The notes below the pieces were generated by a model. That model was not told the DNA's origin. It ran no database searches and worked only from the letters and a program-made list of their open reading frames with translations. The position numbers and the translations under genes were made by a program. Positions 1,322 to 11,040 of a stretch of DNA of 11,639 nucleotides are shown here, piece by piece; the first letter of the stretch is position 1, and every line of letters starts with the position of its first letter. The DNA is from Octopus sinensis (taxonomy: Eukaryota): positions 1 through 11,639 of the forward strand of contig NW_021826928.1 in the NCBI RefSeq assembly GCF_006345805.1. Direction: 5' to 3'.

Positions 1322-1354
1322 TCCTTGAAGAAGGACTTTATCCGAAACGTTGGA
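1322..1354 (+). ncRNA. Minimal type I hammerhead-like motif (PLE type, C3U variant)
   Basis: tcc-TTGAAGA-A-GGA cttta TCC-GAAA-CG-TT-gga. Helix I tcc/gga, helix II GGA/TCC, palindromic helix III ACGT. Preceded by a pyrimidine-rich tract. Confidence 0.55.
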
Positions 1355-1841
1355 TACTCCATTTATCACGACAATTTCACTAGGCACTTTGGATCTGTTT
1401 TATATGGAATGCATGTATAAGTGTATGAATGAATATGCATACGCATGTATGAATATAAGTATGTTTATATGCTTATATGTATGTGTGAGTGTGTATATGA
1501 GCTATAAGCGTGTATCTCATTACTGGATCGTCGAGAAAACCTTTTTTCAAATATTCTCCTGCTGTAACGATTCCATAACCTTACTCAGATATACTATATC
1601 CAAGAATAGGTTATGCTGAATGTCCTTTCTTTGATAGAGACTTGGCTGCTATTTCAAGTAGAGGCTCTTTCTTTGGGATTTTCACAAGCAGCAGTGTATG
1701 TAGCAGAGAGCTTGCACACATTTTTCTCTGTCTCGACTTTGAAGCCATATGCCACAAAATTGCGATTGGAGATTGAGAAAATTCTCCTGTAAATGTACGT
1801 AGATGTGTCTTAACCAGCTCAGCTATTAATATAATATCTGT

Positions 1842-1922
1842 CACACACAAACACCACACACACACACCACACCAACACAACACACCACACACCACACACG
1901 CACACACACACACACACACACA
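1842..1922. repeat. Imperfect (CA)n/(CACAC)n microsatellite
   Basis: Directly visible CA-rich simple repeat. Confidence 0.95.
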
Positions 1923-1986
1923 AGTTTTTATTTTTAGGGTTATATTATTTGACTGTCGCTGTGTTGGAGTACTTCTTTCTAATATA

Positions 1987-2212
1987 TATTTCTCTACTGC
2001 CCTGAAGGGGCTAAACATAGAGGGGACAAACAAGGGCAGACAAAGGGATTAAGTCGATTACATCGACTCAGTGCAAAACTGGTACTTTATTTATCGACCC
2101 CGAGAGGATGAAAGGGAAAGTCGACCTCGGCGGAATTTGAACTCAGAACGTAACGGCAGACGAAATACGGCTATGCATTTCGCCCGGTGTGCTAACGATT
2201 CTGCCAGCTCGC
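1987..2212 (-). mobile_element. tRNA-derived SINE, family B monomer
   Basis: Reverse complement of 4807-5033 at about 90% identity by eye. A box-like TGGCAGAATCG, B box-like GAGTTCAAATTCC, central GGTCGACTTTCCCTTTCATCCTCTCGGGGTCGATAAATAAAGTACCAG domain. Confidence 0.9.
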
Positions 2213-2231
2213 GGATTCCAACCATTTCATT

Positions 2232-2330
2232 ACTTATTTTACTGACCTTAGAGGGATGTAATGCGAACAGTCCTGGGAGGAATTTGAACTCAGAATCTAA
2301 AGCTCTTTTGTCCAACGGTCTATCAATTGC
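2232..2330 (-). mobile_element. Old degenerate family-B-related SINE head/core fragment
   Basis: GGAATTTGAACTCAGAA is identical to the adjacent copy; the flanking sequence is a decayed match to 2084-2212. Confidence 0.7.
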
Positions 2331-2447
2331 GCAGTCAATCTAACATTCATACATATACTCCTACATATATATCCATCCATCTATACACACAGACTCGTAG
2401 ACATATGTACTTACTAACGTACGTAAACCCACACACGCACCCTCGCC

Positions 2448-2530
2448 TATATACTTATATATATATATACATACATTTATATATATGTGTGTGTGTGTGT
2501 GTGTGAGTGTACGTATGTATGTATGTATAC
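2448..2530. repeat. Compound (TA)n/(TG)n/(TATG)n microsatellite
   Basis: Directly visible. Confidence 0.9.
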
Positions 2531-2763
2531 GGATAGACATGGATACATACATAAGTTCATGCGTAGACACCCGGCGTGAACAGACGCAAACTTTAACGTA
2601 GGAGAGTATTCATTGAATTTTCGACAATATCTATTCTCAAACAATAATGGTACGACTACTACCTTTACTAAATAACTGCTTATTCTTCTGAAGACATTTG
2701 CTAAATCAACCTTTTATTCAACGTCGTAGTGGTACATGTCTGAAACTTGCATTCACCTTGCAG

Positions 2764-2836
2764 AGATGCGTTACAAGCAACAGGCTGGACACAACAATAG
2801 CGACACCGGAGGAAAGAAGAAACGGTATTGTAAAAG
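2764..2836 (+). CDS. Candidate internal coding exon (73 nt), product unknown
   Basis: Acceptor attcaccttgcag| and donor AAG|gtaaat. Two open frames: RCVTSNRLDTTIATPEERRNGIVK or MRYKQQAGHNNSDTGGKKKRYCK. No homology recognised. Confidence 0.4.
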
Positions 2837-3167
2837 GTAAATTGTAATTATAGAAGAAACTGAAACAAGAAAACACATTTTCTTAGAGTAGAACTCAATA
2901 ATGACTTATATAATTGCTATAAAATGGCAAAAGGTTCCCTCGGCTATGTGAATTGAATGACAGTCTACTGAGACGAACTTCACTCAGAGTTGAAGTATTT
3001 CATGAGAAAACTGTTACGCTAACAGGCAACATTTGCTGAACATAGGAAAAGCGTTGATGAATGTAGTTCTACACCCCAAAGTACGAAGAGTACAGTAGGT
3101 GAAGTAAATTCCTGGAATACATATGCGGACTCTACGTGTGACAACAAATCTGATTCTAATTGCTGCT

Positions 3168-8605: not shown

Positions 8606-8656
8606 CTGATGACAGAATATTTGTACTCGGGGATATCCCAGAAACAGCTGTAAGAT
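8606..8656 (+). ncRNA. Type I hammerhead motif, right arm (5' strand of helix I lost)
   Basis: CTGATGA-cagaatatttgtactcggggatatccca-GAAA-CAGCTG-TA-agat. An ~11-nt deletion relative to the left arm removes the gtct strand. Confidence 0.65.
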
Positions 8657-8742
8657 TTTGAATTTCTTCCCATAACAATATTGTATACGACTTGAGATGT
8701 TAGCCTCGCCTTAATGTTTGATGTCCTACTTAACAATTATCT

Positions 8743-8817
8743 ATATATATATATACATATATTACATTATATATATATATATATATATATATATATATAT
8801 ATATATATATATATATA
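8743..8817. repeat. (TA)n microsatellite
   Basis: Directly visible. Confidence 0.97.
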
Positions 8818-8820
8818 GTT

Positions 8821-8963
8821 GTTATATTTAGGAATGGTCATTTTGCCAGTTTAGCCAATAAAAACAACACGCACCATATATTTGGAGTTACTTTGCTTCA
8901 CCAAATATATAGTGCGTGTGTTTAATTGGCTAAACTGGCAAAATGACCATTTCTAAATACAAC
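8821..8963. mobile_element. Near-perfect 143-bp hairpin, MITE-like
   Basis: Arms 8821-8885 and 8901-8963 differ by 4 mismatches and 2 single-base indels; 15-nt loop; lies between TA arrays. Confidence 0.8.
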
Positions 8964-9011
8964 CATGTTTGTTTCAATACACGATTTCACATAAAAAATC
9001 TTGTACAACAA

Positions 9012-9155
9012 ATATATATATATATATCTATATATATATATATATAGTATATATATATATATGTATATATGTATATATGTATGTATGTATGTATGTATGT
9101 ATGTATGTATGTATGTATGTATGTATGTATGTATGCATGTATATATACATATATA
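9012..9155. repeat. (TA)n/(TATG)n compound microsatellite
   Basis: Directly visible. Confidence 0.97.
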
Positions 9156-10027
9156 CAGGGTGCAGTGAATGAACTGTCGTCTAAATTACGCTAAAATGAA
9201 AATAACACTGACTTCTCATTTTAAGATATATTTACCAAAAGGCACTTGATGTAGGCCCCCGAATCGAGTATGAGGCCGTGTGGGAAGATGAATGGATGCA
9301 TAACGTCGCCATCACTAATGATCACTTAAAACTCCATGATATTGACTGGAAATTTGATTTTTTCACACTCGGTACATGTTTTGGGGTCACAGTAAGTCAA
9401 CGATTGCTCTTTGTGTTCACCGTCTCATCCTGACAGAAATTTTTATCGTCTGAGAAAAACTAAAGTATGTTCGGTTGCAGGGGTTGCTTCAGTTTTCTCA
9501 AAAGCTTCGTAGCACGGTCTTTCCTCTCATCCTCAATAGCTTAGAATAAAAATAGGCCCTTTCTCATCTTGCATGAGGAATACCGAATGTCTTCATGCAT
9601 TACCTACCTGATAAGAAACTTAGACACTCCCATGTCTCTGGCGATGGTCGTCATTGACTTGAAGGGGTTCTTGTCAATCTTGACCAGGTGCTCTTTTCTT
9701 ATCAGAACGATCGGAGTGTGTTTTCCGAGCTGCCGTACCTTCGTAATCACCATTAGCCTCACCCAACTCTTGCCGAATCTTCTGCACTGTTTTTGACACC
9801 AAAACAGTCTGAAAGGTTCGTGTTGGAGCTTCCGGTGCGAATACCAAGCAATACAGCATGTATTTATCAAATTTCTGGCAGAGTGAATTTCGTCATGGAG
9901 CTGTTTTTTCTAACAGACGGTGCCCAACTGACCCTACTATACTGTGTAGTTGACAAAATCAAAAACAAACAATTTGCGTGCACAAAATTAAAAAATATAG
10001 TGTCGACCATATAGCCATTGCGGTCTG
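9156..10027 (-). mobile_element. Internally deleted Tc1/mariner DNA transposon
   Basis: TA|CAGGGTGCAGTG at the left end; degenerate reverse-complement TIR CATTGCGGTCTG|TG at the right end (about 16/28 matches). Contains a transposase remnant. Confidence 0.85.
9240..9896 (-). pseudogene. Tc1/mariner transposase pseudogene (HTH region plus first catalytic Asp)
   Basis: Across two frameshifts and several stops: MTKFTLPEI**IHAVLLGIRTGSSNTNLSDCFGV / KTVQKIRQELGEANGDYEGTAARKTHSDRSDKKR / IDKNPFKSMTTIARDMGVSKFLIR*VMHEDIRYSSCKMRKG...IL*FFSDDKNF...KFPVNIMEF*VIISDGDVMHPFIFPHGLILDSGAYIKCL. FSD(E/D)K is the first DDD/E motif. Confidence 0.9.
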
Positions 10028-10544
10028 TGTAAATATATATATATATATATATATATAGGTTGGTGCAAGGCCTGCAATTACACCCACACACATGCAACCA
10101 CAAATATATATATATATATATATTATATTATATATATATATAATATATATATCGTTGCTATTGTGTTAAACTGTCCTATGTCCAAATTTGGCCAAATGCG
10201 TTTTCTTTCAATTTAAATTTTGCTTGCAATAAACGGTTCTTTTGGTCAAACTATCCCTTCTCTAGCTGTTCAGGTAAAAATTAGCAAAATGTAGTACAAC
10301 GTTTAGCATTTTTTAAAGGATACGACAGTTTTGCAGAAATATTTCTGACTGAGAATATCATACAAGCAGGGAATTACGATTTTATGCTCCCAACAAATTG
10401 TTATTGCTAAAGTGAAACTGTTGGTAATGTAAAAAGAACTGGAATGGTGAAATTATTTTTTCGTTTCCTGAAAAAGCAAAGCTTTGGACTTACGACACGT
10501 TTTACATAATAGCATCGATATATATATAATATATATATATATAT

Positions 10545-10690
10545 AAATCGTTAGCCACTACACACATTTTTTCTCTCCCTGTTTTTTCTGTGTCCCTTTC
10601 TGTAGAAGAGCGTAGGCTCGAAACGTAAAAGACTTTTTCTATTCCTGAGCATTATACTTCGTCTTTTGTGCTTTTCGTAAACACTCCTTA
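10545..10690 (+). mobile_element. Short PLE pLTR-like remnant between microsatellites
   Basis: About 145-bp pyrimidine-rich unit flanked by (TA)n and (CA)n(TA)n, centred on a hammerhead-like motif. Confidence 0.55.
10596..10631 (+). ncRNA. Minimal type I hammerhead-like motif (A6U variant)
   Basis: cttt-CTGTAGA-A-GAGC gtag GCTC-GAAA-CG-TA-aaag. Perfect 4-bp helix I and helix II, palindromic ACGT helix III. Confidence 0.7.
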
Positions 10691-10729
10691 CACACACACA
10701 TACACACACACATATATATATATATACAT

Positions 10730-11040
10730 CGAAATTTAAGGCAGTGGAGCAGGTAAAATCCGATCTACATATGTTTCCTAGATAGTATATCCTCTGATGT
10801 AATATTTACTCAATGAGGGATACTCAATTACTCAGCTAGCTACACATATGGCTGAAGATACCTTAACGGCAATAGGATTCCTTAACGACGATGTAACCTT
10901 CACATAATTAAGGTATCTCTGGCCTGCTGATTAGCTAGCTGAATATTGCTCGTTAAGTCCTTATTAGATCAGAGGATATGCTAGCTAGGAAACATACGAA
11001 GCCTAGTTTTTACCTGCTCTACTCCATCAATTTGGTTTTT
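10730..11040. mobile_element. About 310-bp old imperfect palindrome with a decayed hammerhead in each arm
   Basis: Arms ~10730-10866 and ~10908-11040 (e.g. GAGCAGGTAAAA/TTTTACCTGCTC, ATATCCTCTGAT/ATCAGAGGATAT, GATACCTTAA/TTAAGGTATC). Confidence 0.85.
10921..11003 (+). ncRNA. Decayed type I hammerhead, right arm (mirror copy at 10763-10853, minus)
   Basis: ggc-CTGCTGA-TTAGCTAGC...GCTAGCTAG-GAAA-CATACG-AA-gcc. The left arm supplies GAAA-CATATG-TA and A6, so the two arms combine to a canonical CTGATGA...GAAACATATGTA core. Confidence 0.55.

Follow-up and report, generated by a model that had tools for sequence, protein, structure and literature searches.

The contig NW_021826928.1 of Octopus sinensis (assembly GCF_006345805.1) is 11,639 nucleotides (nt) long, belongs to a 2.72-Gb genome and was analysed in its entirety (hereafter the window); about 60% of it is matched by the other genomic loci retrieved. 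Eight hammerhead-like motifs of about six families had been predicted within it, at 1322, 6276, 7823, 8216, 8606, 10596, 10763 and 10921, and sequence of that kind was found at all eight places, belonging to six dispersed repeat families. The window very probably holds six copies of abundant families, two of them as inverted pairs, which are likely independent insertions of the 3′ ends of Penelope-like elements (PLEs), mostly decayed, and the cluster likely has no joint function. Families are named here after their motifs; the 10596 family, which carries U instead of A at position 6 of the hammerhead core, is also referred to as the A6U family.

Profile hidden Markov models (HMMs) of the six families, built from other genomic copies that had been pre-chosen for likeness to the window, with the window copy excluded, matched 8/8 places at E values of 1e-21 to 1e-32. 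The motifs at 8216 and 8606 are an inverted pair of one family and those at 10763 and 10921 an inverted pair of another, so that the eight motifs represent six insertions. Genome-wide, dozens of relatives were scored for each motif (first-look candidates numbered 125–2202, which are not copy numbers; an exact 48-mer of family 6276 occurs 11 times, too strict a count to be its copy number). In the family-majority forms both core boxes are present together with complementary helices, the helix sequences being unrelated between families. The core CUGANGA / GAAA / UH is found in the majority forms of families 6276, 7823, 8606 and 10921, and family 1322 is mixed between C3 and U3. The G10.1–C11.1 pair at the base of helix II is present in the majority forms of families 1322, 6276, 7823 and 10596 and is replaced by C.A in family 8606 and mostly by G.G in family 10921. 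Among copies of family 6276 that are ~96% alike, three different bases occur at N7, and both sides of one helix I pair are altered in 4/30 rows, probably by one event.

The type I topology proposed for the motifs was borne out. We used a descriptor of type I order in which a bulge after A9 was permitted and helix III was palindromic; with helices I and II closing the core, it was passed in the window by 1322, 6276 and 10596, and 8216 retains helix I. A palindromic minimal helix III occurs in 6/6 family-majority forms and in 7/8 window copies, where it reads as quoted in the original prediction; the exception is 10921, which reads ACATACGA and not ACATATGT. An extra A after A9, ascribed to three motifs, is a family trait for 1322 and 10596, but in family 6276 this base is G (28/30). 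Judged by these features, the majority form of each family is a minimal type I hammerhead such as has been published for PLEs. A subfamily of 7823 (loci L132, L133, L143 and L145) has helix II lengthened to ~8 bp through changes on both arms, and two relatives of family 8606 (L221 and L257) carry the core CCGATGA.

Published systems are compared here and below as described in excerpts of the cited sources. The PLE hammerheads of PMC4209133 share with the present families the type I order, the core CUGANGA / GAAA / UH, an optional unpaired base after A9, a palindromic helix III, a short helix I and the presence of many families per genome, and their copies are likewise mostly single and truncated, with opposite-strand pairs 100–700 bp apart. 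In the alignment given there, Saccoglossus 1 has a U3.G8 core and Saccoglossus 2 a palindromic helix III of 8 nt, and the published Acropora Neptune motif has nearly the size and helix II of the 10596 family. Two differences were found: G10.1–C11.1 is highly conserved in PMC4209133, whereas families 8606 and 10921 have C.A and G.G instead, and A6 is present throughout the alignment rows examined, whereas the 10596 family has U6. Octopus was not found in the searched supplement text of PMC4209133. Small PLE hammerhead variants that cleave as dimers, reviewed in PMC6765202, share with the families here a diminished stem III and the PLE association, dimer cleavage being published for those variants.

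The PLE link of the 10596 family is direct. At loci picked by a GIY-YIG-like protein, the family lies downstream, on the same strand, of a frame resembling a reverse transcriptase (RT) and GIY-YIG endonuclease (EN) in 28/30 cases, and all 25 readable cores of these loci are CUGUUGA, 615–1000 nt from the frame. The upstream frames match RVT_1 at E 6.7e-8 (above the cut-off) and GIY-YIG at E 0.0024 (below the curated cut-off); among other long frames of the family, the 649-amino-acid frame of locus L306 has no Pfam match and another has one at E 6e-4. The element has a CX4CxxC linker, which fits the Neptune description in PMC8557442. Neptune-clade EN+ PLEs (PMC8557442) are like the A6U family in having an RT, a CX2-5CxxC linker, a C-terminal GIY-YIG and a 3′-proximal hammerhead, and they likewise target microsatellites and leave inverted copies truncated at the 5′ end; the A6U element differs in its long (0.6–1 kb) low-complexity 3′ region, and the likeness is one of features.

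For the other five families, we infer a PLE link from inverted copies, from a constant distance to (TA)n and from 5′ ends that vary between copies. A second, inverted copy lies at most 1 kb away in 9/29, 9/29, 7/29, 6/24 and 9/24 loci (some loci share a pair), and in three families the distance to a downstream (TA)n is fixed. Inverted second copies and fixed (TA)n distance match traits reported in PMC8557442 and PMC4209133; PMC4209133 describes the whole combination of an unpaired base after A9, palindromic helix III, inverted copies, (TA)n spacing and variable 5′ ends. It weighs against this assignment that no in-line RT/GIY-YIG frame was found at the 24–29 loci examined per family, the sole exception being one weak same-strand match to the GIY-YIG region upstream in one locus of family 1322. 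The expectation that the flanks would be repetitive and of PLE type was supported. GIY-YIG-like remnants of a second PLE family were seen in the flanks of two loci (L125:691-1035 and L189:2498-3031). A splice-donor-like sequence at 6241–6252, ~30 nt upstream of the 6276 hammerhead and kept in the family majority, may be the intron known from the Penelope pseudo-long terminal repeat (pLTR).

In our model, the six insertions would be 3′ ends of PLEs that arrived independently, each bringing its family's minimal type I hammerhead. In the source elements, the hammerhead likely cleaved the RNA of its own element after homodimerisation via the palindromic helix III, as in the published model, and after insertion beside microsatellites the copies likely decayed neutrally. 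In the 10596 family, a slowed hammerhead is likely still selected in source elements, and U6 is predicted to pair with A15.1, which would keep the monomer in an inactive fold.

The A6U family was examined genome-wide with a 31-mer in which positions 6 and 7 were left open, giving 12,329 exact matches (0 for the reversed control). Of these matches 11,935 (97%) carry U6, so that the family departs from the A6 of the canonical core, and 394 do not; the first 100 of the latter comprise 69 C, 21 A and 10 G, and this predominance of transitions is what decay of a U6 source would be expected to give. At N7 the first 100 matches hold 51 U, 22 A, 15 C and 12 G (a hand count on one chromosome arm). Conservation was then measured in 21 copies not picked by the motif, taken from background and unrelated flanks (E<1e-20 among 51 matches; one is misaligned by an indel and one has A6). 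N7 (majority 0.48) and N17 (0.62; 13 A, 7 U and 1 G) are the sole motif columns with a majority below 0.75, compared with 41/190 flank columns, and the other 34 motif columns average 0.95 versus 0.82 and 0.88 in the flanks (p 1e-4, a guide value since the copies are related). Freedom at N7 and N17 in an otherwise conserved motif is what characterises a hammerhead that is selected in the source elements. A6 is carried by a sister family whose helix II arms are identical. In this A6 sister family (L144, L224, L246, L267, L269, L272, L281, L288 and L107), 9/17 read cores have a U4C core, CCGACGA; the change creates a CpG, and U4C is therefore likely a source-element state and not decay.

On balance, we consider the A6U hammerhead probably slow yet working. 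A helix of U4.G16.2, G5–C15.2 and U6–A15.1 is predicted with P 0.53–0.98 in six distinct U6 sequences, and with P 0.01–0.10 in three natural A6 copies (3 of 6 fetched fit the 36-nt pattern). A natural change at the same position is known from phage Bcep176, where A6C strongly reduces the rate in Mg2+ and is rescued by Mn2+ (PMC3088659, PMC7151607). The phage ribozyme resembles A6U in being a natural A6 change, with low but real activity; it is a single phage sequence with C, whereas A6U, with U, recurs in ~12,000 genomic copies and belongs to a PLE hammerhead that is minimal and probably dimeric.

Several results weigh against a working ribozyme. CUGA-turn mutations are low in activity in the full mutational scan of PMC9901934, so that A6U may be dead and not slow. 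No cleavage footprint was seen, as 0/51 copies start within 16 nt after the predicted cut (12/51 copies start at −99 to −94, near the edge of the model). Even in A6 copies, the dimer predicted to have minimum energy is not of the hammerhead type; as the folding model favours the hammerhead-type dimer in neither form, it says little about activity. Moreover, the window copy (CUGUAGA) is a sibling, with flanks ~75–78% alike, of the frame-linked CUGUUGA form. An alternative is that the A6U hammerhead is catalytically dead, U6 having reached fixation through drift in a lineage that did well, with the fold being kept for RT/EN binding or 3′-end recognition, or simply carried along; to these variants together we give a substantial minority share of belief. 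The weak CUGA-turn mutants, the slow A6C, the non-hammerhead helix favoured by U6 and the copy ends without pile-up at the cut site all agree with loss of activity, as does the spread of Naiad PLEs without canonical hammerheads (PMC8557442). However, the free positions are precisely those of the catalytic consensus, N7 and N17 (the latter A/U in 20/21), and conservation is higher in the motif than in its flanks, a pattern that a binding role would not obviously yield. A more specific form of the working hammerhead is speculative and, as a whole, rather unlikely: here this family, the most abundant hammerhead family of the window, would be a CUGU-turn ribozyme in which U6–A15.1 pairing would switch off the monomer and conceal the dimerisation palindrome, cleavage then being confined to tandem-transcript pLTR pairs or to particular ions.

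A further alternative concerns the five families without an in-line frame, some of which could be stand-alone non-autonomous elements, retrozyme-like or like short interspersed nuclear elements (SINEs), mobilised by PLE enzymes. Their shared upstream sequence is short (medians 100–301 nt, up to ~700 nt without an inverted arm) and holds no open frame in the sampled copies, and retrozymes derive from PLE pLTRs (10.64898/2026.07.22.740005). Metazoan non-long-terminal-repeat retrozymes (PMC7229834, 10.64898/2026.07.22.740005) are likewise short non-coding repeats with type I hammerheads and PLE ties; they form tandem arrays with canonical hammerheads, whereas the copies in the window are single or inverted and their motifs minimal, and none of the 50 Tandem Repeats Finder rows in the window is a retrozyme-type head-to-tail unit of 170–400 nt. 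Variable 5′ ends and inverted pairs speak against this reading, being compatible with ordinary 5′ truncation, and the sample comprises just 24–29 copies per family. We regard stand-alone elements as possible but somewhat improbable, and prefer insertion of PLE 3′ ends.

Whether the density of motifs is special was assessed against chromosome background. In 60 evenly spaced 10-kb segments, the descriptor gave 27 matches (13 in shuffles), or 0.45 per 10 kb, and the six family HMMs gave 30 matches in 985 kb. An independent library of 64 seeds gathered without the window (32 clusters; incomplete and with some noise) gave 0.96 matches per 10 kb on 80 chromosome segments and 2 in the window; 20/80 segments had at least two matches and 3/80 had four, and 2/20 unplaced contigs had five. 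Against an ordinary density stand the descriptor rate of the window, 2.6 per 10 kb, with only 1/60 background segments reaching 3 matches; the finding that 0/100 background segments exceed 3 copies of the six families, a comparison biased by using the window's own families; and the incompleteness and noise of the library, which recovers just 2/8 window motifs. Hammerhead counts showed no link to (TA)n density (rho 0.04, 80 segments). The nearness of most motifs to (TA)n arrays holds for 7/8 motifs, which are within 300 nt of (TA)5+, but 44% of window positions are equally near. We read the density as upper tail yet an ordinary stretch, singled out since its reader counted every remnant.

It had also been proposed that the motifs, six of them on the + strand of candidate exons, could share a transcript and that the two ACGT motifs could cross-pair. 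Evidence from strand, transcript, cross-pairing and density all fails to support such a functional group, and we consider it very unlikely that the motifs cooperate to process a single + strand transcript, whether in cis or as heterodimers. The count of 6/8 on the + strand is correct, and with the upper-tail descriptor density it speaks for cooperation; it reduces, however, to 4/4 single insertions on + (two-sided p=0.125) plus two inverted pairs, and the family design is kept in just 2/6 + strand copies. In four presumed-RNA runs (contigs only, covering 1–8700), no spliced transcript was found among the joints listed, and depth was mainly over high-copy repeats, which is no evidence of silence. 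Among the data sets listed as containing the sequence, none is recorded as RNA. Most splice-like segments that could be picked out as candidate exons, for which no coordinates had been given, fall inside repeats: those near 1255, 6241 and 7763 sit within repeat families, and that near 2762 within an old dispersed repeat. In the established type I dimer model, both helix I and helix III of each core are formed between two molecules. The 1322 × 10596 heterodimer, the ACGT pair in question, has fully complementary helix III (4/4) but hybrid helix I of 0 and 3 pairs (2 G.U) in its two cores, and was rejected because of helix I pairing. In any read-through RNA, the inverted arms are predicted to pair together at −109.6 and −128.0 kcal/mol, burying four motifs, and background segments attain 4–5 library matches.

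The descriptor, run on the window as had been suggested, gave three matches at up to one core mismatch (1322, 6276 and 10596, just 3/8 motifs), against a shuffle mean of 0.18 with 0/100 shuffles reaching 3; one match has a perfect core (6276; shuffle mean 0.01). For the five motifs outside the descriptor, the case rests on homology to dispersed families. That the motifs are chance matches in AT-rich sequence is negligibly probable and is refuted by the family alignments, since 8/8 match repeat families with complete-hammerhead majority forms, even though the descriptor at up to two core mismatches gives 10 matches, mostly at places other than the predicted motifs, against ~3 per shuffled window (mean 3.2), no hammerhead family is among the window's 62 Rfam covariance-model matches at E<=10, and predicted-folding z-scores are weak (−2.0 to −0.1). 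At 5779, CTGATGA was considered as a ninth motif and rejected, being single-copy in the genome search and without a descriptor match.

The window copies are listed in Table 1 with the other repeats. The family design is retained only at 6276 and 10596; 1322 and 8216 are marginal, and four copies lack some core or helix parts, the core CUGANGA / GAAA / UH being incomplete in the copies 7823, 10763 and 10921.

Table 1. Hammerhead copies and other repeats in the window
Position	Strand	Feature	Element extent	State of the copy
1322..1354	+	Family 1322, minimal hammerhead remnant, marginal	~1273-1378	U3.G8 core with A inserted after A9; helices I and II of 3 bp each; helix III ACGU; U17
6276..6336	+	Family 6276, best-preserved canonical hammerhead	~6163-6479	Core intact; helix I 6 bp; stable helix III AUUGG-GA-CCAAU; A17; A after A9 where the family carries G
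7836..7930 (motif 7823)	+	Family 7823, decayed hammerhead	~7193/7635-7973, stops at (TA)n run	Core boxes intact; inserted base puts G at cleavage-site position 17; A.C apposition at 10.1/11.1; helix I of 1 pair
8216..8271	-	Family 8606, inverted partner of 8606; marginal		Both core boxes kept; 4-bp helix I; helix III ACAGCUGU; helix II base C.A apposition (typical of the family) plus further mispairs
8603..8656 (motif 8606)	+	Family 8606	Stops at (TA)n run near 8740	Core boxes kept; no helix I pairs remain (0); damage in helix II
10596..10631	+	A6U hammerhead, CUGUAGA	Short element ~10543-10690 between (TA)n and (CA)n/(TA)n	A inserted; helices I and II of 4 bp each; helix III ACGU; A17; agrees with the family at all motif positions
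10763..10850	-	Family 10921, inverted partner of 10921		GAAA and ACAUAUGU helix III retained; CUGANGA box and helix I gone
10921..11003	+	Family 10921		G8>U; U16.1>A; helix III broken
205-385 and 11459-11639		High-copy SINE-like repeat		Copies 85% alike; partial inverted copy 11178-11272; near 349-360, GAAA followed directly by CTGAAAGA
1981-2212, 4807-5228		Further high-copy repeat		Both orientations plus partial tandem
2669-3066		Old dispersed repeat		40 scored matches with 65-84% identity; spans exon-like segment 2762-2817
3180-3540		GC-rich repeat		GAAACGT at 3228; the descriptor finds no CUGANGA partner
8356-8581		Long near-perfect hairpin, centre between the 8216/8606 arms		
8832-8952		Long near-perfect hairpin		
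~9160-9990	-	Broken frames, putatively Tc1/mariner-type transposase-like		

The cluster itself is of little importance; it shows an ordinary PLE-rich stretch of the genome read for hammerheads. The hammerhead class is already known, and as far as the literature searched extends, the A6U core variant is new. A natural A6U hammerhead was not found in that literature, the largest survey (Lünse, Weinberg and Breaker 2017, reportedly a set of ~150,000 motifs) lying outside its reach, and a search with octopus found no hammerhead survey. A6U is also absent from the rows examined of the supplement alignment of PMC4209133. Position 6 is regarded as invariant, and the A6U family escapes standard CUGANGA descriptors.

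The role of PLE hammerheads is called unclear in PMC8557442. The genome holds both a high-copy family in which U6 is fixed and N7 and N17 are free and a sister family with A6, which makes this question directly testable with a few short RNAs. If the proposed lock is real, U6 would be a built-in rate limiter of a retroelement with more than 12,000 copies, and the fixed departures of the sister families (U4C, mismatched 10.1/11.1) would form a natural series testing how much cleavage a PLE needs.

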